From NCBI GenBank assembly GCA_964291625.2, contig OZ220089.1, positions 4,448,001-4,512,000 on the forward strand: a stretch of 64,000 bases of DNA, given 5' to 3'. The translations under genes and the position numbers were made by a program. Under the pieces are notes generated by a model. The model searched no databases, was not told the origin of the DNA, and was given only the letters and a program-made list of their open reading frames with translations. The stretch comes from Candidatus Latescibacterota bacterium. GTDB lineage: Bacteria > Latescibacterota > UBA2968 > UBA8231. Of this stretch, positions 12,821-34,117 are shown in pieces; the first letter of the stretch is position 1; each line of letters starts with the position of its first letter.

Positions 12821-12890
12821 CCTCTCCTCCCCGTGCTTGTCACCCGGTGGCGCCGCCACTATCTCAACTCCGGAAGACGGGCCGAAACCT

Positions 12891-14840: not shown

Positions 14841-17800
14841 CCGTCCGGGGCGGCGCGGCGGACCTCGCCGATGGCGGCGGCGGCCCGCTGGTGCCCGGGG
14901 TCCAGGCGCAGGACCGTCTCCCACTCGGCCACCGCCTCCCGCAGGCGCCCCTGCCGGGCGTAGACCTGGCCGAGGGCCTCGTGGAGGTCGATCGAGTCCG
15001 GAGCTCTCTCCAGGCCCTGGCGGAAGGCCTCGGCCGCGGCCTCGAAGCGGCCGGCCATGGCGTGGGCCATGCCGAGGTTGCCGTAGACGAGGGGCCGCTC
15101 CGGGTCGAGGGCGAGGGCGCGCTGGTAGGCCTCCACCGCCAGGTCGTAGCGGCCCGCCCCGTGGTAGGCGGTGCCGAGATCGACGTGCGCATCCAGCAGC
15201 TCCGGGTCCAGCTCGCAGGCCCGCTCCAGGGACCGGACGGCCTGGGGCAGCCGGCCCCGGGCCTGCAGCACCCGCCCGATGGCGTGGTGGGCGGCGGCGA
15301 ATCCGGGATCGAGCTCCAGGATCTGCTGAAATACCTCCAGGGCCTCCGGGACGCGCCCCTGCTCGAGGTAGACGAGCCCGAGAAGCTGGCGCGCATGGGG
15401 GCTGTCCGGATAGTCGCCGACCTTGCGCTCGTAGAGCTCGGCGCGGTCTTGCAGGGGGCGCAGGCGGGCGAAGATCCGGCGCTCCCGGCCGCTCTCTCCG
15501 GGGCGGCCCTGGCGGTCGTACAACCGGGCCAGGTGGAGACGGGGCCCGGGGCTCCAGGGGGCCGCCCGCACCGCCTGGCGGAAGGCGGTCTCGGCGTCGT
15601 CCGTCCGTCCGGCCCGGAGATAGGCCAGACCGAGCCAGTCGGCGTATTCCCAGGAGCCCGGGGAAAGGCGCAGGGCCGCCTCCAGGGCGGCGACGGCCTC
15701 GGGCAGCCGGCCCTGGTTCAGGTAGAGCTTGCCGAGGACGTGCCGGGCGCCGGCGTTGCCGGAGTCCCGCGACACGGCCTTCTCCAGGACCCTTCGGGCT
15801 TCCTCCTCCTCGCCGAGCCCCGAAGCCAGCACCAGTCCCAGGTTGACGTAGGAACCGATCTCTTCCGGGTCGAGCTCGATCGCCCGCTCGAGGGCGGTCC
15901 TCGCCTCGGCGTAGCGGCCCCGGCGGTAGAGGTCCTCCCCGGTCTCGCGGTAGCGGTCGGCGCTCCAGTCCTCTCCCCCCGGGTCGGGTGAGGCGGCCGG
16001 CGCAGGAGTGGGCCTGGTCCGGCGAAGAGCCGCAGGGGCCGCGCCTGCCGGCGCGGGGGCGGCGTAGGCGGGCTCCAGCCGTCCCTCGCCTTCGCGCAGA
16101 CGCCAGTACCGGTTCACCGACTCCGGGACCACCCTCTCGCGGGACCCGGAGGGCCAGGAGACGACGAGGCTGTCCACCGCGGACTCCGGCCCGAGTCCGA
16201 AGACCAGGCGGGGGTCGTGGCTGGACTGGAAGCCGTAGCCCCGCTGCACCTCCCGCAGTTGCCGGTGGCCCGCGGACCACAGCTCCACCCGGGCGCCGGT
16301 CGCCTCGGGGTCGCCCTCTCCGGCGGCCAGCTCCAGTCCGATCCAGCGGTTGCCGCCGCGGCCGTCGTTGCGCAGCAGGGCGGGCCGGTCGTTGAGGTTG
16401 ACGAGGAGGATGTCCGGGTCGCCGTCGTCGTCGTAGTCGGCCACCGCGGCGGCCCGGCTGACGCCTTCGGCCCGCCAGTCCCCTCCGGCCTCGGCGCCGA
16501 CCTCTTCGAAGCGGCCGCCGAGGTTGCGGTAGAGGAGGTTGCGCTGGGCGTAACGGAGTCCGGAGGGCAGCTCCCGCAGCTGTGGGTAGACGTGGCCGTT
16601 GGCGACGAACAGGTCCAGCCAGCCGTCGTTGTCGAAGTCGAGAAAGGCGGTGCTCCACCCCAGGAAGGGCTGCACCACCCCGCCGAGTCCGGCGGCATGG
16701 GTAGCGTCGGCGAAGGTGCCGTCCCCGCGGTTGGCGTAGAGGGTGTTGAAGTCGTCGGAGAAGTTGGTGACGAAGAGGTCGAGGTCGCCGTCGCGGTCGT
16801 AGTCCCCCGAGTGGACGCCCATGCCCGCCTGGGCGCGGCCGTCCTCGCTGTAGGCCAGCCCCGCGGCGGTGCCGACTTCGCGGAAGCGGAAGCCGCCGTC
16901 GTTGAGGAACAGCAGATTCGCCTCGGAGTCGTTGGCCACGTAGATGTCGGGGTCGCCGTCGCCGTCGAGATCGGAGAGCACCACCCCGAGTCCCGGCAGG
17001 CGGTGGCGGGAGATCCCGGCCGGGTCCCCGGCCTCCGAGAAGCGGCCGCCGCCGAGATTGCGGTAGAGGCGGTCGGCCTGGCCGGGGATTCCCTCGGGCC
17101 CGCAGTAGCTGCTCAGACCCTTGTACCGGCACCCGAGCCAGCCGCCGGGGGGATCGTCGAGATCGAACTCCACGTAGTTGGCCACGTACAGGTCCAGAAG
17201 CCCGTCGCCGTCGAGATCCCCGAAGGCGGCGCTCGAGCCCCAGCCGCCGTCGTCCACCCCCGCCGGCCGCCCGGCCTCGGAGAAGGACTCTCCGCCGCGG
17301 TTGAGGTACAGGCGGTTGGCGCCCCAGTAGGTGACGTAGAGATCGGGGTCGCCGTCGTTGTCGGCGTCGCCCACGGCGCAGCCCATGCCCCAGCCGGTGT
17401 GAGCGAGCCCGAGCTCCGCCGTCGCTTCCTCGAAGAGCGGGGCGGCCCCCGGTCCGCGGTGGCGGTAGAAGCGGTTGCCGGCGGCGGCGGGAGGGTCCCG
17501 GAGGCGGGTGCCGTTCACCAGGTAGAGGTCCTGGTCGCCGTCGCCCTCGACATCGAGGAAGGCCGCCCCGGCGGAGATCGTCTCGAGGATGTAGCCCTGC
17601 TCGGGGCTTCCGGAGACGTTCTCGTAGTCGATGCCGCTCTCCCGGGCCACTTCGACGAAGTACACCTCTGGCTCGCCGGCCCCGGCCGTGGGGACGGAGG
17701 CCGCGGCCTCGACCGCCGGTGGATCCCCGGGCCCCCGGGCGGCGGCCTCGCTCTCCTCCGGCGGGTCGGCGGCGGCCGGAGCGGTGAGCGGCGGGTCGGC

Positions 17801-17986
17801 AGGCGGAGCCGCCGGGTGGCTCTCCGGGCTCCGGGGGGCGGGCTCGGGATCGGGGGCGCAGGCGACGGCGAGGAAGGGCAGGAGAACCGCGGTCCTCCAT
17901 CCGGTTCGCCGGGACCGGGCCGCGCCGTTACCGTTGACCCCGGGGGCGCCGGCGAGGTCCGCCGATGGAGTGCCGCGAATGAGCAT
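14828..17986 (-). CDS. CRTAC1-like FG-GAP/ASPIC-UnbV lipoprotein with C-terminal TPR repeats
   Basis: Lipobox LAVAC; repeated DxDxDGDxDLYV motifs; GYGFQSSHDPRLVFGLG (UnbV); many TPR units. Start codon uncertain. Confidence 0.88.
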   Translation of the reverse strand: MLIRGTPSADLAGAPGVNGNGAARSRRTGWRTAVLLPFLAVACAPDPEPAPRSPESHPAAPPADPPLTAPAAADPPEESEAAARGPGDPPAVEAAASVPTAGAGEPEVYFVEVARESGIDYENVSGSPEQGYILETISAGAAFLDVEGDGDQDLYLVNGTRLRDPPAAAGNRFYRHRGPGAAPLFEEATAELGLAHTGWGMGCAVGDADNDGDPDLYVTYWGANRLYLNRGGESFSEAGRPAGVDDGGWGSSAAFGDLDGDGLLDLYVANYVEFDLDDPPGGWLGCRYKGLSSYCGPEGIPGQADRLYRNLGGGRFSEAGDPAGISRHRLPGLGVVLSDLDGDGDPDIYVANDSEANLLFLNDGGFRFREVGTAAGLAYSEDGRAQAGMGVHSGDYDRDGDLDLFVTNFSDDFNTLYANRGDGTFADATHAAGLGGVVQPFLGWSTAFLDFDNDGWLDLFVANGHVYPQLRELPSGLRYAQRNLLYRNLGGRFEEVGAEAGGDWRAEGVSRAAAVADYDDDGDPDILLVNLNDRPALLRNDGRGGNRWIGLELAAGEGDPEATGARVELWSAGHRQLREVQRGYGFQSSHDPRLVFGLGPESAVDSLVVSWPSGSRERVVPESVNRYWRLREGEGRLEPAYAAPAPAGAAPAALRRTRPTPAPAASPDPGGEDWSADRYRETGEDLYRRGRYAEARTALERAIELDPEEIGSYVNLGLVLASGLGEEEEARRVLEKAVSRDSGNAGARHVLGKLYLNQGRLPEAVAALEAALRLSPGSWEYADWLGLAYLRAGRTDDAETAFRQAVRAAPWSPGPRLHLARLYDRQGRPGESGRERRIFARLRPLQDRAELYERKVGDYPDSPHARQLLGLVYLEQGRVPEALEVFQQILELDPGFAAAHHAIGRVLQARGRLPQAVRSLERACELDPELLDAHVDLGTAYHGAGRYDLAVEAYQRALALDPERPLVYGNLGMAHAMAGRFEAAAEAFRQGLERAPDSIDLHEALGQVYARQGRLREAVAEWETVLRLDPGHQRAAAAIGEVRRAAPDGQTQ

Positions 17987-20900
17987 GGCGCAGCGAGCCG
18001 TGGATACGTCTCTCAGCAGGGGAGCAGGGACCGTCGATTGCCGCGGGAGTGGTGACTGCAAGTTCCGCCGCCCGGGACCGGTCTGTCAACGCCGGCTCGA
18101 CGGCCTGCGCCCGGGCCCTGCCGGGACCAGGAGGCGGCCCCCGGGGGCCGCCGGCCGGGGGCGCGGCGGAACACCCTCGCCCCGCGCGGGCCCGCCCTGG
18201 CTCCTCGCGCTCCTGGCGGCGGCCGGCCTGCTGTGGGCCCACGGCGCCGGCGCCTCCGAGCGCCGGGTCCTGGAGAACGAGCGCGCCCGGGTGACCCTCG
18301 CCCCCCGGGAGGGAGCGGCCATCGTCCAGTACCTGGACCGCCGCAGCGGCGTCGAGTACTCCACCGCCGGGGCCCGGCCCCCCGGTCCCGGCCTGCGCGA
18401 CCTCACCCTCGGAGTCGACGGGGTCGCCCATCGCCTCGAGGCCCGCGACGGCGCCGGGTACAAGGGCGTCGTGGCCCGCGCCACGGCTCCGGGAACACTG
18501 CAGGAGGGGGGTCGGATCGTCGGTCTGTCGGCGTCCTCCCGCGTCTCCGTGGAGCGGGAGATGCGCCTGGCCGACGGCAGCACCCGCCTCACCGTGGTGC
18601 TGCGCTACACCAACATCGGGGAGGAGGCGGTTCCCCTGTGGATCCGCTGGCATCCCTACCTGATGCTGGACGATCCCTACGGCGAGCACTCGGTCATCGT
18701 CGCTCCGGGCCCCGGGCGGGGGCAGATGCGCCGCATCCGCGTGGGACTGGGGCGCGACACCCACTTCCTCGACGTGCCCGGCTACTGGATGGCCATCAAT
18801 CCGCGCACCGGCCACGGCGTGTGGATGACCTTCCGGGAGGCAGACGCGCAAGTCTGCGCCACCTGGACCGACTACCACCGCGAGAAGCGTCCGGAGCGCG
18901 GCTGGTTCACCGTGGAGCCGCGCCGGGCCAAGCAGCTCCTGGGGCCCGGCGAGCGGGTGGAGATGCACCTGACCTACCAGCCCTTCGCGCCGGGGGACCG
19001 TCTCCATCCCGGGTTCGTCGAGCCGGAGGAGCGCTCCGCGGCGCAGCGCTTCGCGCGCCTTGTGCGTGAGAACGCCGCCGTCATCGCCGCACACACGATG
19101 GTGCCCTGGCCCAACGAGGGCCACAGCGCCGCCGCGCAGAACCGCTTCTACTTCAACAATCTGCGCCGCGACCGCTTCGGTCTGGCCGACGCCGGCATCG
19201 CCGACGCCCTCATGGCGGTCCCCGGGATCCAGTCGATCCCTCTGAGGATGCGGCACTACGCGCGCCTCTTCGACAGCTGCTACGACCGCACGCCGGTCCG
19301 CTTCCGGATGGCGGTGACGGACGCGCTCGGCCGAATCGTGCTCCGGGAGGCCTGGACGTACGACCTGAAGCCGATGGAGACCCGCACCCTCGACCGCCGC
19401 GTGGAGCTCGACCTCGGAGAGCTCGAGGACGGCCGCTACACCTTCCGTCTCGACGTCGATCTGGGAGAGGAGGAAGCCCTCCACTCCTACGAGGAGGAAC
19501 GCGTCCTCGCCGGCCGCGCCCGGGGCCGCGCCGCGGAGGCCAGGCGCTCGGCCGGGTCCCTCGTCGAGAGGGAGCGCCCCTTCGTCACCGCCCTGCGCCA
19601 GGTGGAGCTCCCCGGCGGCGGCCGGGTGCCCATCGGCGTCGAGGAAGCGGCCGGACTGACACGCGTCGACTGGCCCATGCGGGTGGGGGTTCCCTTTGCC
19701 CGGGGAGCGTTCCGCGTGGGCGCGGGGATCGCCCTGAGCGACGCCCTCGGACGGCGGCTCGACACGCAGACGAAGGTCATGGGCACCTGGCCGGACGGCA
19801 GCGTGCGCTGGCTCCTCGTCGACTTCCAGAGCGACGTCGTCGGCGGCGGGCACACCTTCCTCGCCCTCGACCCGTCCGACGACCGGACCCGGGGGCCGGC
19901 CATGGCCGGACGCCGGGGGGACGGTGTCGCCGTCGACGTGGGCACCCGCGTCTGGGTCTTCGGGGCCGACGGCACCATCGAGGGCCTCCTGCAGCCGGGG
20001 GACCTGTGGTGGAGGACCGGGGAAGGGCGCACCTACCGGTTTTCGGTCGCCGGTCCGGAGGCCGGGGTCCGCATCGTGGAGAACGGGCCCCTCCGCTGCC
20101 GGGTCCGGGTCACCGGCTGGTACCACCCCGCCAAGGGGGAAGGGGACCCGGTGGCGCGCGGCGAGCTCGATGCCGAGTTCTACCGCGGCAGTCCCTTCTT
20201 CCGCCTGTACCACACCTGGACCTACACGGGGGATCCGTGGGAGGACACCCTCGGCGGCGCCGGGATCCGCTTCCGTCCGGAGGGCCCCTTCTGGAAGGAG
20301 GCGGCCGTCGACCTCGACGGCGAGGAGGTGTCCAGCGACAGCCTGGTGGTGGTCCGGCAGCTCGACGACGAGCACGCCGAGGCGGCGACGGCGCGGCTGA
20401 GCCGGCAGGGCTCGCGGTCCACCGGCACCGTGAGGATGCGCCGCAAGGAGCGCGATCTCGTCATCCATCACCGGGACTTCTGGCGGCTCTTCCCCAAGCG
20501 CGTCGAGGCCTCCGTGGAGGAGGGCACGGTGACCTTCCACTACTGGCCGGAGGAGCGGGGGGCCATGGACTGGCGCCCGCGGGAGGACGGCATGCTGACC
20601 TCCAGCAGCGCTCCCACCTGGTCCCTGGCGGCCGGGGTCTCCCGCACCCACGAGTTCATCATCGACCCCGCGGCGTGGTTCGAGCTACCCCTGTACGAGC
20701 GGATCTTCGGCGAGCCCGTGGTCTGCGCCGTGCCCCCGCGGTACCTGACGGCCACCGGGGCGCTGATGCACCTGCAGCCCTACGACCCGGAGGTCTGCCC
20801 CGATCTCGAGGCCCTGGTGGAGGAGGCGCTGGAGAGCTACCTGCTCAACCAGCGCGTCTATCGCTGGTACGGCCAGTGGGTGTGGGGATCGCTGCCGGCG

Positions 20901-21743
20901 GCTTACGTGGCCAGCCAGGGGCGCTGGGAGAACCACGGCCGCTACGGTCACCTGCTGAACGAGCAGAACATCGCTCACGTCCCGTGGCTCGCCTTCCTGC
21001 GCTCCGGCGACCGCCGCTGGCTCCGGCTGGCCTCGGCCCACACCCGCCACCTGCTGGAGGTGGGCACCATCCGCCACGATCCGCGGGACCCCTCGGCGAG
21101 CGGCCTGAGCCGCCGCCACCACGAGTGCATCTGGCTCTCCCCCGGCGACTCGGGCCACTCGATGGTGGACCCCTTCCTGGAGATGTACCACGTCACCGGC
21201 TACCTGCCGGCCTGGGAGGCGAGCCGGCGCATGGCGCGGGCCATGGCCCATCCCGGCGCCGCCTTCCACGACTACGGCTGGCGCTACCTGTCCAACCCCA
21301 TCGCCGGGCTCGCGCGGATGTACCTGGAGACCGGGGAGGAGGCCTGGCGGCAGGAGGCCGACCGCCTCTGGAGCACGTATGCCCGGCCCGACCGCAACCG
21401 CTGGTACGCCGGCGGCCACGGGGCCCGCATGGCCCTCTGGTACGGCCGGATCAACGAGGAGGTCCGGCGCCTGTGGATCGAGCGCACCGGGGCCGGGGAG
21501 GAGGACCGCGCCTTCCACCACCTCGACGCGCTGGCGGCCCTGTACGAGGAGACGGGAGACCCGAAGTACGCCGACGCCATGGTGCCCGTCTTCGACAGCT
21601 ACGCCGCCGGCGCCCGGCGCCGCGACCCCGAACGCGAGGATCCCCTGCGCTGGGGGATCGCCCACGCCACCCAGCACATCCTGGCCGCCGTGCGCGAGAT
21701 GATGTACGCCTCCCGCGCCCTGGCGGAGGCCCGGAGAAAGTGA
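17979..21743 (+). CDS. Large secreted protein: galactose-mutarotase-like N-terminus plus exo-rhamnogalacturonan-lyase (PcRGLX/YetA)-like domains
   Basis: Signal-like WLLALLAAAGLLWAHGAGA; RRVLENERARVTL...; PMRVGVPFARG...WPDGSVRWLLVDF; IVENGPLRCRVRVTG; helical C-terminus. Start codon unclear. Confidence 0.7.
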   Translation: MSMAQRAVDTSLSRGAGTVDCRGSGDCKFRRPGPVCQRRLDGLRPGPAGTRRRPPGAAGRGRGGTPSPRAGPPWLLALLAAAGLLWAHGAGASERRVLENERARVTLAPREGAAIVQYLDRRSGVEYSTAGARPPGPGLRDLTLGVDGVAHRLEARDGAGYKGVVARATAPGTLQEGGRIVGLSASSRVSVEREMRLADGSTRLTVVLRYTNIGEEAVPLWIRWHPYLMLDDPYGEHSVIVAPGPGRGQMRRIRVGLGRDTHFLDVPGYWMAINPRTGHGVWMTFREADAQVCATWTDYHREKRPERGWFTVEPRRAKQLLGPGERVEMHLTYQPFAPGDRLHPGFVEPEERSAAQRFARLVRENAAVIAAHTMVPWPNEGHSAAAQNRFYFNNLRRDRFGLADAGIADALMAVPGIQSIPLRMRHYARLFDSCYDRTPVRFRMAVTDALGRIVLREAWTYDLKPMETRTLDRRVELDLGELEDGRYTFRLDVDLGEEEALHSYEEERVLAGRARGRAAEARRSAGSLVERERPFVTALRQVELPGGGRVPIGVEEAAGLTRVDWPMRVGVPFARGAFRVGAGIALSDALGRRLDTQTKVMGTWPDGSVRWLLVDFQSDVVGGGHTFLALDPSDDRTRGPAMAGRRGDGVAVDVGTRVWVFGADGTIEGLLQPGDLWWRTGEGRTYRFSVAGPEAGVRIVENGPLRCRVRVTGWYHPAKGEGDPVARGELDAEFYRGSPFFRLYHTWTYTGDPWEDTLGGAGIRFRPEGPFWKEAAVDLDGEEVSSDSLVVVRQLDDEHAEAATARLSRQGSRSTGTVRMRRKERDLVIHHRDFWRLFPKRVEASVEEGTVTFHYWPEERGAMDWRPREDGMLTSSSAPTWSLAAGVSRTHEFIIDPAAWFELPLYERIFGEPVVCAVPPRYLTATGALMHLQPYDPEVCPDLEALVEEALESYLLNQRVYRWYGQWVWGSLPAAYVASQGRWENHGRYGHLLNEQNIAHVPWLAFLRSGDRRWLRLASAHTRHLLEVGTIRHDPRDPSASGLSRRHHECIWLSPGDSGHSMVDPFLEMYHVTGYLPAWEASRRMARAMAHPGAAFHDYGWRYLSNPIAGLARMYLETGEEAWRQEADRLWSTYARPDRNRWYAGGHGARMALWYGRINEEVRRLWIERTGAGEEDRAFHHLDALAALYEETGDPKYADAMVPVFDSYAAGARRRDPEREDPLRWGIAHATQHILAAVREMMYASRALAEARRK

Positions 21744-22726: not shown

Positions 22727-25117
22727 TCAGCGCAGCAGGACCAGCCTCCGCGTCTGCACCTGTCCCGCCGATTCGAGCCGGTAGAGATAGACCCCGGTGG
22801 CCAGCTCCCGGCCGCCGTCGTCGCGGGCGTCCCAGAGGATGGAGCGGGTCCCGGCGGGGCCGTCGCCGTCCAGGAGGCTGGCGACCTTCTGGCCCAGCAG
22901 GTTGTAGATGGTGAGCCGCGCCGGTCCGCCGGGCAGGGTGAAGCCGATGCGCGTGGAGCCGTTGAAGGGGTTGGGGTGGTTCTGCTCCAGGGCGAAGGCG
23001 GAAGGCACCGCGGCCGCCTCTCCCACGGCCGTCGGGACGGCCCCCGTGAGGCGCAGGTCGTCGAGGAAGAAGCGGCCCCCGAAGTTGCCCGAGAACGTCA
23101 CCTCGCGGATCTCCTTCGGCGGTCCGAAGGCGGCGAGGGGCACTTCCACCACCTGCCAGCGGTCGTCGCCGAAGCGATGGCGGCCCGGCCGCGCGGGTTC
23201 GGTCTCCACCAGTCCCTCCGCCGCCAGGTCGATCACGGTCTCGGCCAGGTAGATCGTGAACCGCGGTTGTCCCCGGACCACGGAGAGGCCGGGATGGAAG
23301 GCGAAGCGCAGGTGGCCGTAGCCCGCCGGATCCAGGGGTTCGTCGGGGAGGAACTTCACGACCCAGTCCCAGTCCTCCCAGCGCACGGGGAAGGTGGCCG
23401 AGCGGCGGCCCTGGAAGACCTCCTCCCGCTCGGCCAGGTCGAAGGAGAAGTCGTCGAGCCAGGTGCCGTTGAAGACCGACCAGCCGTCGGCCAGACTCTC
23501 GTCGTAGATCACCAGATCGGGGACCACCTCGCCGGGCTCGACCATCACCGTGGCCGTCAACCGCGAGCCGTGGGTCTCGGAGCCGGCGCGCTGCTCGACG
23601 AGGACGGATACCGTCTTCAGCCCCGGCGTTGCGTCCACCTTGAGGGAGGTCCGCAGACGCCAGGTGCGCTCCCCCACCTCTTCCAGGGGCACCTTCGAGG
23701 CGCCTCCCAGGGCGCTGAGATCGGCGGTGACCGCGGGGCTCTCCCCGCCGGGGGCCAGCCGCTCGACACGGACGCCGGCCTCCACCGCCAGGGTGGCGCC
23801 GTTCACGATCGAACCCGGGAAGGTGTGCTCCCAGGAGGCGGCGACGGGTCCGTGGGTGATCCTCAGGATGGCGCGCACGTGCCGGTCGCTGGAGACGTAG
23901 AGATTCCCCGCCTCGTCGCTGACGATCCCCACCGGGAACCCCCAGACGTCGGAGACCTCGGTACCGGTCTGGAAGCCGGTGGCGAAGTCGGCGATGCGGG
24001 CGTCGGACCCGTCGGGCTCGCTGAAGAGGACGGCGACGTTGTACCCGGGGACCGGCGCCAACTTGGCGTGCCCGGCGTGGATGGCGACGAAGGCCGCCCC
24101 GCGGTACCGGGCCGGGAACTGGTCGCGGGTGTAGAAGTGCAGCCCCATGGGCGCCAGGTGGGCGGGGATCAGCGCGGCGGGGCGCACCATGCTCTCCACC
24201 AGGGTCGAGTCCTCGGGCGAGAGCGGCAGGTTCTCCCGGTACCTGGGCAGGTCGGTGTCGACGTAGACCTGGTAGCCGTAGGCCAGGGGGGTGCCGTAGA
24301 AGCCGCCGTCGCGGATGATGTCGATCCACTCCGGCGGCAGGCTGGCGCCCTCGGTGTCGTGGCCGTTGTTGGTCGCCCACAGCTGGTTGGTCACCGGGTG
24401 CAGGGCCATGCCGATGGGGTTGCGGATGCCGCTGGCGAAGACGCGGCGGCCGCTGCCGTCGGCGTTGAAGCGCAGCACCGTCCCGCGCTCGGGGTCGGGG
24501 TGGCGGCACATGTCGCAGGGCCAGCCGACGCCGACGTAGAAGTGGTCCTGGGCCTCGTCGAAGACGATGGTGCGCGTCGAGTGCCATCCCCCCTCGGGAA
24601 GGGAGGGGACGATGTTCTCCCGTTCCTCGTAGACGCCGTCGCCGTCGCCGTCGGTGAGACGCACGATGCGGTTGGTGTCGGCCACGTACATCGCCCCCTT
24701 GTAGAAGGCCAGGCTGTGGGCGCGGGTGAAGCCGCGGGCGGCGACGATCGCCTCGTCGGCGACGCCGTCGCCGTCCCGGTCGGGCAGGGCGACGATCGTC
24801 CTGGCCCTCATGTCGGCCACATGGAGCACGCCCCCGGGACTCACCGCCATGAAGCGCGGCTGGGTGAAGTCGTAGGCCGCGAAGACGGAGGCGGAGAAGC
24901 CGGGGGGCAGGTTGAGGACGAGGTCGCGGGGGATGCCGCTGAAGCGATCCGGCACGTGGACGGGAACGGGCTGCAACCCGAGGTCCACCGTGGGCGTCAG
25001 CTGAAACGTGCCGGGCGGGTAGTCCTCCTCGCCGCCGGCGCCTTCCGTCGTCAGGCCCAGGAGCAGCAGGGCGAGGCCGGGGGCGGTCGTCCTCCAGAGT
25101 GAGCGAGGGCTGGTCAT
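22727..25117 (-). CDS. PQQ-dependent sugar/sorbosone dehydrogenase family protein with C-terminal FlgD-Ig/T9SS-like domain
   Basis: LPPGFSASVFA, HSTRTI, FASGIRNPIG, AHLAPMGLHFY; C-terminal QNHPNPFN...WDARDDGGRELATGVYLY. Confidence 0.88.
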   Translation of the reverse strand: MTSPRSLWRTTAPGLALLLLGLTTEGAGGEEDYPPGTFQLTPTVDLGLQPVPVHVPDRFSGIPRDLVLNLPPGFSASVFAAYDFTQPRFMAVSPGGVLHVADMRARTIVALPDRDGDGVADEAIVAARGFTRAHSLAFYKGAMYVADTNRIVRLTDGDGDGVYEERENIVPSLPEGGWHSTRTIVFDEAQDHFYVGVGWPCDMCRHPDPERGTVLRFNADGSGRRVFASGIRNPIGMALHPVTNQLWATNNGHDTEGASLPPEWIDIIRDGGFYGTPLAYGYQVYVDTDLPRYRENLPLSPEDSTLVESMVRPAALIPAHLAPMGLHFYTRDQFPARYRGAAFVAIHAGHAKLAPVPGYNVAVLFSEPDGSDARIADFATGFQTGTEVSDVWGFPVGIVSDEAGNLYVSSDRHVRAILRITHGPVAASWEHTFPGSIVNGATLAVEAGVRVERLAPGGESPAVTADLSALGGASKVPLEEVGERTWRLRTSLKVDATPGLKTVSVLVEQRAGSETHGSRLTATVMVEPGEVVPDLVIYDESLADGWSVFNGTWLDDFSFDLAEREEVFQGRRSATFPVRWEDWDWVVKFLPDEPLDPAGYGHLRFAFHPGLSVVRGQPRFTIYLAETVIDLAAEGLVETEPARPGRHRFGDDRWQVVEVPLAAFGPPKEIREVTFSGNFGGRFFLDDLRLTGAVPTAVGEAAAVPSAFALEQNHPNPFNGSTRIGFTLPGGPARLTIYNLLGQKVASLLDGDGPAGTRSILWDARDDGGRELATGVYLYRLESAGQVQTRRLVLLR

Positions 25118-26228: not shown

Positions 26229-28457
26229 GTGTCTCTCGAGGGCCCGCACATCCCGAGCAGCCTCTCCGCGGCGGTCCTCGCCGGCCTCCTCCTGCTGCCG
26301 GGGCCGGCGGACTCGCAGGCGCCGTGCGGGAACTGGTCGGCCCTGACCCGGATGCGGCCGGTCAACGCTCTCGTCGCCGATTCCGGCGGCGTGTGGGCGG
26401 CCACCGACGGAGGGGTGCTGCACTTCGACCGGGAGACCGGCCGCTACGCCCGGTTCACCCGCCTGCAGGGCCTGCCCGAGGGCCGCATCACCGCCATCGC
26501 CGCCGACCCGGCGGGAGATCTGTGGTTCGGTTCCGACTTCGGCGGCATCAGCCGCTACCGGCCGGCCGGCTCACGCTTCGACCCGCTCCTGACGATCTTC
26601 GCCGACCTCGGTGTGAGGACCCTCCTCCAGGTGCGGGACAGGATGTACGTGGGCAGCGACGCCGGCATCAGCGTCCTCCTCACCGACGTCCTGCGGGTGC
26701 AGGAGAACTACTGGCAGCTGGGCGACTTCCCCCGCAACACGGGGGTGACGGGCCTGGTGGAGCACTCGGGACTCCTGGTGGCCGGCACCCCCGAGGGCGT
26801 GGCCTGGGCCGACCTGGCGGCGGAGAACCTGCAGAATCCGGACTCCTGGCTCACGGAGGACAGGCCCGGGGCGGTCGCGGCGCTCGTCTCCGCCGGGGGC
26901 GACCTGCTGGCCCTGGGTGAGACCGGGCCGTGGCGCCTGGAGGAGGGAGCCTGGCAACCGGAGCCCGCCCCGGTCGGCGTGCGCGTGCTGGGGCGCGGGG
27001 GCGGTGCGCTCCTGGCGGCCACCCGCAGCATCGTCTACGAGCGCCGCGGCGCCGGAGAGTGGACGGTGGTGGGCGCCGCGCCGGCCGAGCCGCTGGCCAT
27101 CGCCAAGGGAGCGGGGGAGACCTGGGTGGGGACGAGGGGCGGGCTCCGCTCCCTGGGAGGCCCGCCCCTTCCCGACGCCGGGGATCCCCCGGCCACCAGC
27201 TTCCACGACCTGGCCTCGACCCCGGACGGAGAGCTCTGGGCGGCGGTGGTGCCCAACGATCGGGAGGGGAGCCCCATCGGGGTGGCGCACTTGACACCCA
27301 TGGGCTGGAGGGTCCACGGAGTCGGCTCCGGCCTGCCCTCGGACGTGGCCGTGGCCGTGGAGGTCACCGGGGACGGCGGCGTGTGGGCGGGGACCTGGGG
27401 CCAGGGGATCGGGGTCCGGGCCCCGGGCGGCGGCTGGCGGCGGCTGGACCAGACGAACTCCGCTCTCCGGGGGGTCGTCGCTTCCCCCAGCTACGTCGTG
27501 GTGAACGACCTGACCGTCGATGACGGCGGCCGGGTGTGGGCCCTCAACCTGCAGGCCGGGCTGGCCGTCTTCGACCCGCGCACCGGCGCCAGCCACCTCC
27601 ACGATCTCGAGAGCCTGGGACTGACCCGGGGCCGCGAGTTGAACGAGGTCGTCGCCGACGGCAGGGGGCTGCTGCTGATGGCCGCCGTCCTCGACGGCGT
27701 CCTCCTCTTCGACGACGGCGGCACCCCCTTCGACCCGGGGGACGATCACGTCATCTCCCTCGATTCCGCCACCGAGCCGCGGATGACCAGCGACGAGGTC
27801 AGGAGCCTGGCCGCCACCGGCGAGGTCCTCTACATCGGCACGCCCGAAGGCCTGTTCCGGGCCCGCTACCGGTACGACCGCGCCACGAGGGTCTTCGAGA
27901 TCGTCAGCTGGCGGGCCTACCGGCGCGACCACGGCCTGGCCTCCCCGGTGATCACCGACATCGAGCTCGACGGCCGCGGGTCGGTCTGGGTCGGTACCGA
28001 GGGAGGTCTGACCCGGCTCCACGACTCCGGCCGCCTGGTGGAGACCTACACCGCCGACAACAGCTGCCTGGTGGACGACCACGTGCTGACCCTGCGGTTC
28101 GACGAGACCAGCGGCCAGCTCTGGATCGGCACCCGCGGGGGCCTCGGAGGGCTGCGGGTGGCCGCCGGGAGCGGAGACCTGGACGAGGGGGTGCGGATCT
28201 ACCCCAATCCCTTCGTCTCCGGGGCCGGCGCCCGGGTCACCTTCGAGGGCCTGCCGCCGGGCGCCCAGGTCCGCCTGTTCGCCGCCGACGGCCGCCTCGT
28301 GCGCACCCTGGAGTCCGACCTCGGGGGGGCGGTCGTCTGGGACGGGAGGAACGACGGCGGCTCCGCCGTCGCCTCGGGGGTGTACTACTACACCCTCGGC
28401 CTGGGCGGCGCGGAGGCGGGCGCGCGGGGGAAGCTGGCGGTGATCCGCGATGACTGA
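26229..28457 (+). CDS. porZ: PorZ-like protein (two beta-propellers plus FlgD-Ig C-terminal domain)
   Basis: Signal peptide; Reg_prop repeats (VWAATDGG, GLPSD, VWVGTEGGL); IYPNPF...VWDGRNDGGSAVASGVY...GKLAVIR; directly upstream of a C25 peptidase. Confidence 0.75.
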   Translation: MSLEGPHIPSSLSAAVLAGLLLLPGPADSQAPCGNWSALTRMRPVNALVADSGGVWAATDGGVLHFDRETGRYARFTRLQGLPEGRITAIAADPAGDLWFGSDFGGISRYRPAGSRFDPLLTIFADLGVRTLLQVRDRMYVGSDAGISVLLTDVLRVQENYWQLGDFPRNTGVTGLVEHSGLLVAGTPEGVAWADLAAENLQNPDSWLTEDRPGAVAALVSAGGDLLALGETGPWRLEEGAWQPEPAPVGVRVLGRGGGALLAATRSIVYERRGAGEWTVVGAAPAEPLAIAKGAGETWVGTRGGLRSLGGPPLPDAGDPPATSFHDLASTPDGELWAAVVPNDREGSPIGVAHLTPMGWRVHGVGSGLPSDVAVAVEVTGDGGVWAGTWGQGIGVRAPGGGWRRLDQTNSALRGVVASPSYVVVNDLTVDDGGRVWALNLQAGLAVFDPRTGASHLHDLESLGLTRGRELNEVVADGRGLLLMAAVLDGVLLFDDGGTPFDPGDDHVISLDSATEPRMTSDEVRSLAATGEVLYIGTPEGLFRARYRYDRATRVFEIVSWRAYRRDHGLASPVITDIELDGRGSVWVGTEGGLTRLHDSGRLVETYTADNSCLVDDHVLTLRFDETSGQLWIGTRGGLGGLRVAAGSGDLDEGVRIYPNPFVSGAGARVTFEGLPPGAQVRLFAADGRLVRTLESDLGGAVVWDGRNDGGSAVASGVYYYTLGLGGAEAGARGKLAVIRDD

Positions 28458-31400
28458 GGGCGGTCCGAGGCTTCCTTTCCTGCTGCTGGCCGCCGCGGCG
28501 GCGGCCGCGGCCGACGTCCGGCTGGTGGGCCTCGATGACTCTTCGCTGCGCCTGGAGCACCGCGTCACCGGCCCCTGCGCCGCCTCCGAGAGCGTGCTCG
28601 TCGGCCTCCCTCCGGGCGCCGAGCCCACCCTGCACCTGCTGACTCTCGAGGAGCGGCCGGGCGGGGTGGTCTGCGGCCAGGGGTCCGAGCCGGAGCCGGA
28701 GGCGTGGGTCTCGCCGCCGCCGGCCGCCGAGCTGCTGGAGGTGGGCCGCTTCCGCCGCCAGCGCGTGGCCCGCATCCGGTTCTCCGGACGGCACGGGCAG
28801 CAACCCCTGGGCCGGGTCGTGGCCGAGATCCGCTTCGGCTCCCGCCGCGGCCCGGGACGGTCCTCCTCCCCGGGGGCGGACGAGGCCCTCTACGCCGGGA
28901 CCGTCCTCAACCACGAGCAGGCCCGCCGGTGGCGGCTGGCGCGCCGGCCGCCGGAGGCCCCGAGGCGCGCCGCCGGCGCCGCGGCCGGCCCCGTGTACAA
29001 GGTCACCATCCGCAGCACCGGGCTCTACCGCCTCACCGGCGCCGACCTGCCCGGGGCCCGGGGCGCGGCCAGCTCCGGCCTGACCCTGCTCTACGGCGGC
29101 GGCCGCCCCCTCGACCCGGACGAGCTTCGGGGGCCTCTTCCCCTCGCGCCCGTGGCGGTGATCGTCGAGGACGGGGGAGACGGCACCTTCGACGCGGAGG
29201 ACGAGCTGATGTTCTACGGCGAGGCCTCCTCCCGCTGGGAGGGGGAGGGGGAGGACAGCCGGTGGCTGCACAACCCCTTCACCGGGGAGAACGCGTACTG
29301 GCTCGCCACCGCCGATCCCGAGCGCGCCCTGCGCCGGGAGCCCCGCCCACCTCCCGCGGCGGCGGCCGCGGCCGCCGACCGCTTCACCGAGCGGGTTCGC
29401 CTCGAGGGCGAGCACTTCCCGACCCACACCACGCCGGAGAAGATCGCCAGCGGCACCGAGTGGTACTGGCTGCGGATGTCCGCCGGCGACGAGGAGACCT
29501 TCCCCGCCCTGCTGCGGTCGCCCGCCGAGGAGACGCCGGTCCTCATCCGCATGCGGGGCATCTCCCAGACGAAGGACGGGGAGTCCCTGCGATTGCGCTG
29601 GAACGGGCGTTGGGCCGGGAACGCCCGGGCCAGCGAGGACGGTCCCTTCGTCTCCGAGGTGCGGACCACGGGGGCGGTGGAGGGGATCAACGAGCTCCAC
29701 GTCCGTCACCTCCGGGGGTGGCGGGTCCTGATCGACTGGTTCGAGCTGGAGTACGAGCGCCGCCCTCACGCCGAGGCGGGGCAGCTGTTCCTGCCGGCCC
29801 GCGGGGGCGCCGCGACCTACCGGGCCACGGGTTTCGAGGAGGCTCCGCGCGTCTTCGCCGTGGAGGACGGCGGCCTGCGCGAGGTCGCCGGGCTGGAGTA
29901 CTCCCCGGCCGAGGGCCGCGTGACCTTCACCGACAGCGCCGGCCCCGGCGCCCGCTACGCCGTGGCCGGGCCCGCGGGGATCCGCCGCCCCGCGAGGATC
30001 GAGGAGCGGCCGCCCCACCGGCTCGTCGACAGGTTCTCGGGAGCGGACTACCTCGTCCTCACCCACCCCGACCTCGAGACGGAGGCCGTCCGCCTGGCGG
30101 CCTGGCGCGCCGCCGACGACCGCCACGGCCTGCCCTTCTCCACCGAGGTGGTGCTCACGGACGAGATCTACGACGCCTTCTCCGGGGGGCTCCTCGACCC
30201 GACGGCGCTGCGCAACTTCCTCCATCACGCCTTCGAGGAGGGGCGGCCTTCCCCGGGCTTCGTCCTCCTCCTCGGCGACGGCAACTTCGACTACCGGGAC
30301 AACCTGGGGACGGGGGTCGGCAACTGGGTTCCTCCCTACGAGGAGGAGGAGAGCACCTACGACGAGTGGTACGTGCGCGTCTCCGGCGCCGACGACCTGC
30401 CGGACATGGCCGTGGGACGGATCCCGGTCCGCTCCTCCGAGGAGGCCGCCGCCGTGGTCGACAAGCTGATCGCCTACGACCGCGAGCCGGAGCAGGGCCC
30501 CTGGCGCAGCCGCATGCTGCTGGCCGCCGACGACACGTACCACGCGGACAAGCCGGAGCGGGTGGAGGCGGACTTCGTCGTGGACGCGGAGAAGCTGGCG
30601 GCGGAACTGCCCCCGGATCTCGACGTGGAGAAGCTCTACCTCGTCGACTACCCCCTCGAGGGCCGCTTCAAGCCGCGCGCCCGGGAGGACTTCCTCGAGA
30701 GCTTCTCCCGGGGTTCGCTGCTGCTCACCTGGGTGGGGCACGGCAACTCCCAGGTCCTGTCCCACGAGGTCATCTTCCGCCTCAGCCAGGACCTGCAGGA
30801 GGTGAACAACGGGCGCCGCCTGCCCCTGGCCTACGGCGCCGCCAGCCAGCTGGGCATCTTCGACGATCCCAACCGGGACTCGATGCCGGAGGCCCTCCTG
30901 AAGCGGCGCGAGGGCGGCGTGGTGGCGATGATCGCCGCCACCCGCGTCGGGTTCCACCCCAGCAACATGGAGCTGGCCCGGCACTTCCACGCCAGGCTGC
31001 TCACCAGTGGCCGCGAGGGCGTCCCCGTGGGGCAGGCCCTGCTCGAGGCCAAGCTGCGGTCGGTGCAGAACCGCGACAACACGCGCCGCTTCAGCCTCTT
31101 CGGAGATCCGGGGACGCGGCTGGCGCTCCCCCGTCTGCGGGTGGAGCTGGAGGTGGCCGACACCCTGCGCGCCCTGGAGATGGCCCGCCTCGTGGGGCGG
31201 ATCACCCGCGGCGGCGAGGCGGTCCCCTCCTTCGACGGCCGGGTCCGCCTCCAGGTCTTCGACTCCAGCTCGCTGCGGCGCCGCGTCGAGCAGGGCGTCA
31301 CCCTGGAGTACCAGCGGCCGGGGAACCCGCTCTTCCGGGGGCTCTACCCCGTCGCCTCGGGCCGCTTCTCGGTGGACTTCCTCGTCCCCCGCGACATCAC

Positions 31401-32130
31401 CTACCGCGGCCTCGCCGGCAGGGCGAGCGCCCTGGCCTGGGGCCCGGGCGGCTCGGCCTACGGAGCCGCCGGGCCGCTGGCCTTCACCGGGCTCTCGGGG
31501 ACCGCGGCCGCCGAGGACGACGAGGGACCGGCGATCGCCTTCGAGCAGGCCGGCCGCGTCCTCGAGGAGGGCCACGTCCTGCGCGGCGACGCCTCGCTGC
31601 GGGCGACGCTGCGGGACGCCAGCGGCGTCAACATCACCGGCGACGTGGGCCACGGCATCCGCCTGCACCTCGACGAGGCGGTCCTCGACGTCACCCGCGA
31701 CTATCACGCCGTGGGCGACTTCCGCCAGGGGGAGGTCCTCTTCGACCTGCCCGGCTTCGAGCCGGGCCGCCACCGCATCCGCCTGGAGGCCTGGGACGCG
31801 CGCAACAACTGGGGCGAGGGGGAACTCGAGGTGCGGGTCTCGGAGGAGGTCGATGCGGATCTGGACGACCTCCTCTTCCATCCCAACCCGCTGGCCGCCG
31901 AGGGGGGCCACTTCTCCTATACCCTCAGCGCTCCCGCGGGGCGGGTGAGGATCTCCGTCCACACCCTGGCGGGACGCCTCGTCGACGAAGTGACGGCAAG
32001 CGGCGAAGCCGGGTACAACGCGCTCTCCTGGGAGGCGCCGGCCGGCCTGGCCAACGGCGCCTATCTCTTCAGCGCCCGGGTGGACGGCGGCGAGACCCGG
32101 CGGAGGGGCGTCCTCGTCGTCGCCCGCTAG
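28450..32130 (+). CDS. porU: PorU-like peptidase C25 (gingipain family) sortase homolog
   Basis: YKVTIRSTGLYRL, DYLVLTH, LLLGDGNFDYR, PDMAVGRIP, WRSRMLLAADD, WVGHG, LFGDP, DDEGPAI, DASGVNITGDVGH, AWDARNN, HPNP C-terminal domain. Confidence 0.85.
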   Translation: MTEGGPRLPFLLLAAAAAAAADVRLVGLDDSSLRLEHRVTGPCAASESVLVGLPPGAEPTLHLLTLEERPGGVVCGQGSEPEPEAWVSPPPAAELLEVGRFRRQRVARIRFSGRHGQQPLGRVVAEIRFGSRRGPGRSSSPGADEALYAGTVLNHEQARRWRLARRPPEAPRRAAGAAAGPVYKVTIRSTGLYRLTGADLPGARGAASSGLTLLYGGGRPLDPDELRGPLPLAPVAVIVEDGGDGTFDAEDELMFYGEASSRWEGEGEDSRWLHNPFTGENAYWLATADPERALRREPRPPPAAAAAAADRFTERVRLEGEHFPTHTTPEKIASGTEWYWLRMSAGDEETFPALLRSPAEETPVLIRMRGISQTKDGESLRLRWNGRWAGNARASEDGPFVSEVRTTGAVEGINELHVRHLRGWRVLIDWFELEYERRPHAEAGQLFLPARGGAATYRATGFEEAPRVFAVEDGGLREVAGLEYSPAEGRVTFTDSAGPGARYAVAGPAGIRRPARIEERPPHRLVDRFSGADYLVLTHPDLETEAVRLAAWRAADDRHGLPFSTEVVLTDEIYDAFSGGLLDPTALRNFLHHAFEEGRPSPGFVLLLGDGNFDYRDNLGTGVGNWVPPYEEEESTYDEWYVRVSGADDLPDMAVGRIPVRSSEEAAAVVDKLIAYDREPEQGPWRSRMLLAADDTYHADKPERVEADFVVDAEKLAAELPPDLDVEKLYLVDYPLEGRFKPRAREDFLESFSRGSLLLTWVGHGNSQVLSHEVIFRLSQDLQEVNNGRRLPLAYGAASQLGIFDDPNRDSMPEALLKRREGGVVAMIAATRVGFHPSNMELARHFHARLLTSGREGVPVGQALLEAKLRSVQNRDNTRRFSLFGDPGTRLALPRLRVELEVADTLRALEMARLVGRITRGGEAVPSFDGRVRLQVFDSSSLRRRVEQGVTLEYQRPGNPLFRGLYPVASGRFSVDFLVPRDITYRGLAGRASALAWGPGGSAYGAAGPLAFTGLSGTAAAEDDEGPAIAFEQAGRVLEEGHVLRGDASLRATLRDASGVNITGDVGHGIRLHLDEAVLDVTRDYHAVGDFRQGEVLFDLPGFEPGRHRIRLEAWDARNNWGEGELEVRVSEEVDADLDDLLFHPNPLAAEGGHFSYTLSAPAGRVRISVHTLAGRLVDEVTASGEAGYNALSWEAPAGLANGAYLFSARVDGGETRRRGVLVVAR

Positions 32131-32145
32131 GCGGACTCCCGCCCT

Positions 32146-34117
32146 TCAGTAGACCGGGATCCGGTTGCCCACGGTCCCGGTGAAGCCGTCGATCACCAGC
32201 CACAGACCGCCGACGACGAACTGGCCGAGGACGATGCCCAGGAAGAAGGGGCGCGTCGAACGGTAGAGGCCGGGCCCGCCGTACTTGAGGACCACCACCT
32301 TGATCAGCCAGGCGAGGAAGATGGAGAACCAGATGTTGTTGAGGGCCCAGCCCGGGCTCACCGCGAAGCCGAGGGGATGGAGGGGCCACCAGGGGAAGCG
32401 GTGGCGCGCCATCATGAGCAGGGCCATGACGCCGCCGCCGCCGCCGGTCCAGAGCCACCCGACCAGGTTCGGGCCGGTGGGGGTGGCCAGCTTCTTGGCG
32501 GCGAAGCTGGAGGGGTACTGGGCGAAGCCGCCGAAGTACTGCCGGTGCAGGTTGAGGGCGCCGTCGCGGTAGGCGAGGTGCAGCAGCATCCACGCCGACA
32601 GGACCAGGCCGACGGCCATGGCCACGGCGATGGCGATGGCCAGCCAGCGGCGCCTCGCCGTGGCCTCGGAGCCGAGGCGCATGGCGTTGGCCAGGGGCGC
32701 GGTCATGAAGACCAGCAGGTCTCCCATCCAGGCCAGGGTGTAGCCGGTGGCCACCATGCCCTGCATGCCGAGGGCGGGGACCCCCACCCCCGAGACCACG
32801 AACCCCGCGGGCACCATCTCCGGCGTCACCGTGGGCAGGCCCGCCTCGGCGATGACCCGCGCCAGGCCGATGAGGATCACCAGGGCCGAGAGGATGAAGA
32901 GGGGCACGATGTGCGGCGGGATGCCGCTCTTCCACAGCCAGTAGCCCATGAACAGGACGCCGACGATCAGGCCGCCGAGGGCGCCCCGGTAGGAGAGGAT
33001 CTCGCCGCTGTCGTCGACCTCGGGGGCGCGGCCCAGGGCCTTGCGCGCCACCTGCTTCAGGTGGCCGCGGGCGGTCCACAGGCTGAAGAACACGAGCACG
33101 AAGAGGGCGCCCATCATCTGGTGCCCCATGATCGCCCCCACCGGCCCGGAGCCGGTCCACGGCCCGAGCTCCTCGGCGTTGTGGATCCCGACGACGCGGA
33201 AGAGGCCCTCCTGCAGGGTGTTGAGGAGGTAGAAGAACCACAGGCTGAAGGCGATCCCCGAGTTGATGAAGTAGGCGAAGCCGAACATCAGGTAGTTGAT
33301 GCGCAGCCGCAGGATCACCGAGTCCCGGAAGAGGGGCACGGAGGCGGCGGGGTTGATGGGCGAGATGAAGTGGAAGTAGTGGCTCAGGGCGTTGACGCTG
33401 CCCAGGACCAGGGGGATGGCCATCCCGCACCACATGACCGGCGACTTGAAGAAGGGCTTGAGGATCTCGCCGCGGTCGCCGCGGCGGTCCTCGATCATGG
33501 CCAGGGAGAGCTGGGCCAGGGGGAAGACGAGGCGCTCGTGCTCGACCCACGGGCGCCGCAGGATGACCATGGCGCAGACGAGGACGAGCCAGAACCCCGC
33601 GAAGAAGGAGAACCAGCGCAGCAGGGGAGGCGCCCAGACGTCCAGGGGGATCCCGGAGCCGCTGGTGGTGCCCTCGTAGAACTCCTTCACCGCCGTCGGG
33701 TGGTAGACGACCATCCAGTCCGAGAGCAGGGGGTGGATCAGGGTCGCCCAGTCGTTCTCCGGCGTGGCGTAGTAGAAGGTCCCCGTGATCATGGGCAGCA
33801 GCATGCCCGTGACCCCGCGGGTGGGGATGGCGGTGGCCACGGCCATCATGATGAAGACGGTGACCAGCTCGGCCGCGGCTCAGGGCCCAGGTGCGGCGCA
33901 CGGCCCCGAGCGCGACCTGCACCGTGAGGAGCAGGACGAAGAGCAGGAAGAAGGCCGCCGGCGTGCACGAGCTGAGGCCCAGGCGCGTGCCCTGGATCAC
34001 CATGGCGCCGTAGGGGACGCCCACGGCGATGACCGCGCACATGACGGCGCCCACGGCCAGGCCCCGGAGGGTTACGGGGTGGCTCGCGGTCTCGGCGCGG
34101 GACGGGGTCGACGGCAT
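32146..34117 (-). CDS. DUF6785/DUF6784-type membrane protein, copy 2; +1 frameshift near 33872 (probable sequencing error or pseudogene)
   Basis: The N-terminus (MPSTP...) and body (MMAVAT...) lie in different frames. Removing one base from AGC CGC GGC C GAG CTG restores LSR-ELVTVFIM, matching the paralogs. Confidence 0.82.

Follow-up and report, generated by a model that had tools for sequence, protein, structure and literature searches.

A PorU ortholog with serine in place of the catalytic cysteine in a large clade of Latescibacterota

The stretch of DNA analyzed here, referred to as the window, comprises 64,000 nucleotides from a Candidatus Latescibacterota bacterium (assembly GCA_964291625.2, contig OZ220089.1, positions 4,448,001 to 4,512,000 of the forward strand) and encodes an ortholog of PorU, the sortase of type IX secretion systems (T9SS), in which serine (Ser799) occupies the position of the catalytic cysteine. 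Alignments, codons, and a phylogenetic tree indicate that serine at the nucleophile position of PorU is a lineage-wide trait of a large Latescibacterota clade. Ser-type proteins keep the catalytic histidine together with nearly all of the conserved catalytic core, and in some genomes such a protein is the only member of peptidase family C25, which points to a working Ser-His enzyme more than to a non-catalytic scaffold.

Results

A PorU ortholog with serine opposite the catalytic cysteine

The gene and the positions within it on which the argument depends are the following.

28450..32130, + strand: PorU ortholog, Ser type, 1226 residues (match to NCBIfam NF033707, T9SS_sortase; phmmer match to PDB entry 6za2)
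30049..31122, + strand: Peptidase_C25 catalytic domain, residues 534-891 (Pfam PF01364, 257.5 bits)
30739..30741, + strand: codon CAC of His764, the dyad histidine, in the motif WVGHG (aligned by phmmer with the histidine in AGHGG of 6za2)
30844..30846, + strand: codon AGC of Ser799 at the nucleophile position, within LPLAYGAASQLGIFD (opposite the Cys of ITATCDF in 6za2 by phmmer)
30943..30945, + strand: codon of Arg832, counterpart of the sortase-like Arg722 of Porphyromonas gingivalis PorU (opposite TTRV in 6za2)
30949..30957, + strand: Gly834-Phe835-His836, loop residues past the following strand, some of them specific to the Ser clade (from the frequencies of G834 and H836)
31906..32085, + strand: putative C-terminal Ig-like domain (FlgD_ig), residues 1153-1212, the protein's own tail, which resembles a T9SS C-terminal domain (CTD)

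The assignment as a PorU ortholog is based on the family model for 'type IX secretion system sortase PorU' (NF033707), which matches residues 178-1212 with 536.4 bits against a curated cut-off of 420, and on a phmmer search of the PDB, in which the window PorU found a single relative, P. gingivalis PorU (6za2, E 4e-51). An initial reading of the letters without database searches, the first-pass annotation, had taken the remainder of the gene to be intact, which agrees with a reading frame that is open throughout 1226 codons and with the full-length match to NF033707. At the C-terminal tail the FlgD_ig match scores 21.5 bits, under its cut-off of 27, and the alignment to the PorU hidden Markov model reaches residue 1212 and that to 6za2 residue 1217.

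The same annotation had proposed that the histidine motif WVGHG is intact and that serine replaces the catalytic cysteine, placing the codons at CAC 30739 and AGC 30844, and had suggested an alignment with P. gingivalis PorU. The two coordinates are exact, and in the phmmer alignment with the 6za2 chain His764 stands opposite the dyad histidine while Ser799 faces the catalytic Cys690, with no other cysteine at that position; cysteine is absent from the whole catalytic region of the window PorU (residues 519-900). By count along the 6za2 chain the nucleophile is residue 688 and the histidine residue 655, two below the published numbering of the nucleophile (C690), and the catalytic histidine of P. 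gingivalis PorU is presumably H657. Passages in two reports identify C690 as the catalytic cysteine of P. gingivalis PorU (PMC5121618, PMC5562754), and a passage in a third describes Arg722, 32 residues past the cysteine, as a conserved sortase-like arginine (PMC4560394).

Distribution of the serine form

Close homologs were aligned as the 120 best matches from a protein database clustered at 90% plus the query. In these 121 sequences the nucleophile column contains serine in 119 and cysteine in 2, and the histidine is present in all; the source names of the matches indicate Latescibacterota, together with some metagenome-assembled genomes labeled Gemmatimonadetes. A wider alignment of the 150 best 50%-cluster representatives and the query (151 rows) has cysteine in 133 rows, serine in 13, and a gap in 5, serine being limited to the nearest representatives with at least 51% identity. 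When catalytic domains were cut out with a profile, 265 proteins matched, of which 259 covering more than 300 profile positions were kept and 6 were dropped. The nucleophile column of these 259 domains holds 135 cysteines, 123 serines, and one gap, the histidine column 258 histidines and one glycine, and a single protein (P0262) is the odd row in both columns.

A FastTree phylogeny of 258 domains (all but P0262), for which the nucleophile column was masked, unites all 123 Ser domains in a single clade that has 126 tips and a support of 1.0. The other three tips are Cys forms, so that across the 126 clade members only serine or cysteine occurs at this position. One of the Cys forms (P0127) is located at the poorly resolved base of the clade. 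The other two (P0071 and P0097) lie 12 nodes deep within it, in a group of four tips with two Ser forms (support 1.0), and by this placement look like Ser-to-Cys reversions. Their nucleophile segments read 'TATCQVGAFDDP' and 'TAACQVGAFDDP', respectively.

Across the phylum, 163 of 168 species genomes have a match at E <= 1e-20. The Ser type is confirmed in the window's own family (f1), in which 75 of 75 genomes matched, and in a family of another class (f9).

Codons at the nucleophile position

The DNA collected for the analysis contains 56 distinct Ser-type gene copies, which by count from the locus lists come from 48 genomes. Serine is encoded by AGC in 41 copies and by AGT in 15, and TCN does not occur. 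Cys-type PorUs of other families in the phylum (f5-f8, f10-f14) have TGC or TGT at this position in 18 of 18 loci. This distribution fits a single change from Cys (TGY) to Ser (AGY) that was later kept through synonymous turnover. The first-pass annotation had proposed a search for serine in both AGY and TCN codons, and AGY alone was found (56/56 copies); the exclusive use of AGY codons argues for one origin and not for repeated selection for serine. It had also considered an error or a private mutation, which TGC in close homologs would betray; close and distant homologs alike carry AGY.

Conservation of the catalytic core and predicted fold

To compare the two types, the 123 Ser-type domains were checked at the 40 columns in which the 135 Cys-type domains show a conservation of 90% or more. 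In 38 of them the same residue is held at 90% or more in the Ser type; the two that are not are the nucleophile itself and P887 (0.89). Columns held in both types include G763-H764-G765, E773, N787, D805, E814, R832, and N839, and the sortase-type Arg832 reaches 90% or more in the Ser and the Cys group alike. The Ser clade, with a mean depth of about 1 substitution per site, is less divergent than the Cys group.

Residues fixed in the Ser clade cluster beside the catalytic pair (T760, A798, Q800, G834, and H836). A798 and Q800 flank Ser799, G834 and H836 lie in the loop that follows the next strand, and T760 occupies a position at which asparagine has a frequency of 0.85 in the Cys group. The frequencies of G834 and H836 are 1.00 and 0.94 in the Ser group versus 0.02 and 0.10 in the Cys group. 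H847, D677, and a few more residues belong to the same set, whose members are rare in the Cys group.

A cysteine elsewhere in the domain was considered as an alternative nucleophile and ruled out: the catalytic domain is free of cysteine in 102 of the 123 Ser-type proteins and no column exceeds 6% Cys, which indicates that the nucleophilic cysteine has not been relocated.

An AlphaFold2 model of residues 520-900 (pLDDT 90, pTM 0.91) suggests that the clan CD fold is intact despite the loss of the cysteine. In the model, His764 follows strand 239-243 and Ser799 strand 274-278 (model numbering); the two strands are adjacent, and a histidine and a nucleophile predicted just past adjacent strands correspond to the clan CD arrangement. 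The best Foldseek match of the modeled domain is gingipain R 1cvr (RgpB, TMq 0.73), Kgp matches with TMq 0.66-0.68, and 6za2 was matched as well, with a poorer superposition. An entry for human separase C2029S is also among the Foldseek matches.

Genomic context and number of C25 genes

The following genes in the window and elsewhere in the genome bear on the context of PorU.

26229..28457, + strand: PorZ-like gene (NF052228 PorZ, 139.8 bits, cut-off 260; Reg_prop propeller and Ig-like tail)
22727..25117, - strand: candidate T9SS cargo protein with a type A CTD, 796 residues (TIGR04183, 33 bits, cut-off 23; GSDH/DUF7133 propeller)
G000:C1:2247186-2252798, minus strand (elsewhere in the window's genome): giant PorU-related C25 protein, 1870 residues, carrying both His and Cys as well as a C-terminal Ig-like tail (profile matches)

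The gene upstream of PorU is called PorZ-like because PorZ is its best NCBIfam match but the score remains under the cut-off. The coupling of PorU to porZ that had been proposed in the first-pass annotation thus stands as far as the arrangement is concerned, since the upstream reading frame (26229..28457) overlaps the PorU start by 8 nucleotides, but the partner is only PorZ-like (139.8 bits versus 260). A PorZ-like homolog is encoded directly upstream of PorU in five of the six related loci with 3-kb flanks, and the sixth has a PorV-like gene downstream of PorU and not a PorZ-like gene upstream. PorV-like genes, scoring under the curated cut-off, adjoin the second PorU copy of the window's genome and PorU in 22 related loci. 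The candidate cargo gene at 22727..25117, situated upstream near the PorZ-like/PorU pair, also gives a weak match to a PVC-type haem-binding model.

The window's genome possesses the SprA translocon (a frame of 2117 residues) and 102 CTD matches, of which 100 are over the cut-off. A search of genome contigs for related loci gave eight, including two distant 31% matches (L010, L011) that were left out of the analysis. Three C25 genes are present in the window's genome, namely the window PorU, a second PorU, and the PorU-related protein of 1870 residues. The second PorU (571 bits with NF033707) also has serine at the nucleophile position ('YTAASAVGVFDD') and is followed by the PorV-like gene, so that both PorU equivalogs of this genome (536 and 571 bits) are of the Ser type. 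Downstream of this pair, on the minus strand at G000:C1:1098000-1100413, lies a gene whose product scores 168.8 bits with NF052323 ('T9SS-dependent M6-like inactivated metalloprotease'), under the cut-off of 600. The giant protein scores under the cut-offs of both PorU (257 versus 420) and PorU2 (206 versus 450).

In all five single-contig genomes tested (G010 of family f9; G129, G131, G133, and G144 of family f1) there is a single Peptidase_C25 match, and it is the Ser-type PorU. Each of the five has a PorV-like gene beside the Ser-type PorU and, at E <= 1e-5, between 33 and 85 matches to the type A CTD. In the sister families f2-f4, all five genomes tested have the giant His/Cys type (open frames of 1905-1991 residues) as their sole C25 gene, and because it is the only one there it may be the acting signal peptidase in these families. 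The nucleophile segment of the giant Cys type is SCLNG in six of six cases.

Other genes in the window

Three paralogous proteins with DUF6785 and DUF6784 are encoded within 34 kb, at 12492-14840 (+), 32146-33849 (-), and 44258-46420 (-), the second of them immediately downstream of PorU and in the opposite orientation. The frame at 14828-18061 (-) encodes an FG-GAP/ASPIC-UnbV protein of 1077 residues with a long TPR array, and that at 17631-21743 (+) a PcRGLX-like (rhamnogalacturonan lyase-like) protein of 1370 residues. As these two frames overlap at their 5' ends, one start was probably called too early.

Discussion

Working enzyme or scaffold

The first-pass annotation had offered two explanations for the serine, a serine-nucleophile transpeptidase of clan CD and a catalytically dead scaffold, and these two are the ones left standing, the evidence leaning to the functional one without deciding between them. 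On the strength of the comparisons made here, we favor a working Ser-His variant over a non-catalytic scaffold and give it about an even chance. Exchanges between cysteine and serine as nucleophile are known in the chymotrypsin fold. According to a passage in a paper of 2011 (PMC3220528), an active serine form was not known at that time on the caspase-like fold, and a full-text search for 'clan CD' together with 'serine nucleophile' returned this paper alone. No paper describing a Ser-type PorU and none pairing PorU with Latescibacter was found in a full-text search that did not extend to the PorU-structure paper or to supplements (for example, S9 Fig of PMC4560394).

What argues for a working enzyme is above all that the Ser-type PorU can be the sole C25 protein of a genome, in a porU-porV arrangement and in the company of dozens of CTD cargo proteins. 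The occurrence of only serine or cysteine at the position, the retention of the core including His764 and Arg832, and the nested Cys forms point in the same direction, as does a clade-specific remodeling restricted to the active-site rim. Further points in its favor are the synonymous turnover of the serine codon, the lack of a substitute cysteine, the intact predicted fold, and, in the window's genome, SprA with many CTD matches over the cut-off and two PorU equivalogs that are both of the Ser type.

The pathway would begin with a TGY-to-AGY change by which, in the ancestor of a large Latescibacterota lineage, serine replaced the nucleophilic cysteine, to be kept since. In the present-day protein Ser799, activated by His764, would attack the cargo peptide bond ahead of the CTD, and the clade-specific neighbors Gln800, Thr760, or His836 might assist it. 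The acyl-enzyme would be an oxyester in place of a thioester and would be resolved by water or an amine acceptor. If so, this might be the first natural enzyme with a serine nucleophile to be built on the caspase-like (clan CD) fold, i.e., an oxyester-forming T9SS sortase with coevolved neighbors (Gln800, Thr760, and the Gly834/His836 loop, perhaps including a second general base), and one that would be oxidation-proof, since most members lack cysteine in the catalytic domain; for this fuller proposal we would put the chance just short of even.

Several points weigh against a working enzyme. We know of no activity for any Ser-type C25 protein, and laboratory Cys-to-Ser mutants of clan CD enzymes serve as inactive forms. 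The signature of both codon families is absent, so that there is no codon argument for repeated selection of serine. The agreement in 38 of 40 core columns partly reflects relatedness, because the Ser group is less divergent and the groups were defined by the very feature that was counted. The window's genome also carries a Cys-type PorU-related protein, the giant of 1870 residues. PorU is described in part of PMC5562754 as a structural member of the PorU-PorV-PorZ-PorQ attachment complex, and this structural role alone could explain its conservation. In metacaspase 4 (MCA4) of Trypanosoma brucei (clan CD, family C14), a natural Cys-to-Ser member of the clan that has been tested, serine stands in place of cysteine and the histidine is kept, and according to PMC3220528 the protein is inactive and gains activity as S219C.

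These observations could also be accounted for by a conserved non-catalytic PorU, a pseudopeptidase that would bind cargo CTDs and organize the attachment complex with PorV-like and PorZ-like partners without cleavage. Serine and histidine would then be kept for substrate binding, and the CTD would either stay on the cargo or be removed by another enzyme. This explanation is plausible, although we consider it somewhat doubtful. The chemistry of the clan CD fold and the structural part of PorU in the attachment complex (PMC5562754, in the passage cited) speak for it, and MCA4 is, in the portion of PMC3220528 referred to, inactive yet functionally important. The giant Cys-type protein is found not only in the window's genome but also in several relatives, and as the only C25 gene in the five tested genomes of f2-f4 it indicates that the system in this class can be served by a C25 protein of another kind. 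A scaffold is, however, less easy to reconcile with the five single-contig genomes, in which the Ser-type protein as sole C25 gene has no active partner. It also would not lead one to expect that 126 clade members have only serine or cysteine at the position, although glycine, asparagine, threonine, arginine, and isoleucine are one base away from AGC, nor that the histidine and the conserved core are kept over about 1 substitution per site within the clade, nor that Cys forms are nested within it.

Besides a working Ser-His sortase and a scaffold, another nucleophile, for example a relocated cysteine, or a serine site with a different reaction, for example hydrolysis only, by which cargo would be released and not anchored, seems improbable. 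A serine ester might conceivably shift the balance between aminolysis and hydrolysis, and most of the little probability beyond the two principal explanations belongs to such a changed outcome of the reaction; the scarcity of cysteine in Ser-type domains rules out relocation, and the retention of the sortase-type Arg832 stands against a change in reaction or nucleophile. Errors of sequencing or assembly, a mutation private to this genome, and a pseudogene in decay can be ruled out with near certainty, since homologs share the serine, 56 distinct copies in 48 genomes encode it by AGC or AGT, the frame is open, the core does not decay, and the second PorU of the same genome has serine as well.

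A lineage whose sole PorU bears serine provides a natural test case. If the protein is active, the chemistry thought to be allowed on the clan CD scaffold would have to be revised, and a possible oxidation-resistant sortase-like enzyme would be at hand. If it lacks activity, a T9SS that handles dozens of CTD cargo proteins would work without its signal peptidase, and the model of cargo release and anchoring would need revision. The database names 'type IX secretion system sortase PorU' and 'C25 family cysteine peptidase' may misstate the chemistry of Ser-type proteins.

Comparison with known systems

With the giant Cys-type C25 protein of its own genome, the window PorU shares 39% identity over the C25 domains and, putatively, an Ig-like C-terminal tail; the giant differs in having His and Cys, in being about 650 residues longer, and in scoring under the PorU and PorU2 cut-offs. 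The gingipains RgpB and Kgp (MEROPS C25) are the best structural matches of the modeled domain, but they use cysteine and, being cargo, do not form part of the secretion apparatus, and a passage in PMC4560394 describes them as lacking the PorU arginine.

MCA4 resembles the Ser-type PorU in its caspase-like fold, in the histidine that is kept, and in the serine at the nucleophile position (PMC3220528, in the part cited), and with MCA4-like pseudopeptidases in general the Ser type has in common that the nucleophilic cysteine is lost while the fold, here as predicted by the model, is kept. Nevertheless, MCA4 coexists with active Cys paralogs that process it, whereas the Ser-type PorU is fixed lineage-wide and is the sole C25 gene in five of five single-contig genomes tested, even though the window's own genome has a Cys relative.

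The closest known counterpart is P. gingivalis PorU (PG0026; 6za2; NF033707; MEROPS C25). Both proteins belong to the same length class and have the same full-length architecture with the C25 domain, the catalytic histidine, an arginine 32-33 residues past the nucleophile, and a C-terminal Ig-like tail that is putative in the window PorU, and both are linked in the genome to partners of the attachment complex, here a PorZ-like gene and, at the paralog and in relatives, a PorV-like gene. They differ in the host, which is a member of the Latescibacterota and not of the Bacteroidota, and in the presence of two Ser-type copies in one genome. At the active site, Ser799 takes the place of Cys690, and the rim carries T760 for N, A798 for T, Q800, G834, and H836.

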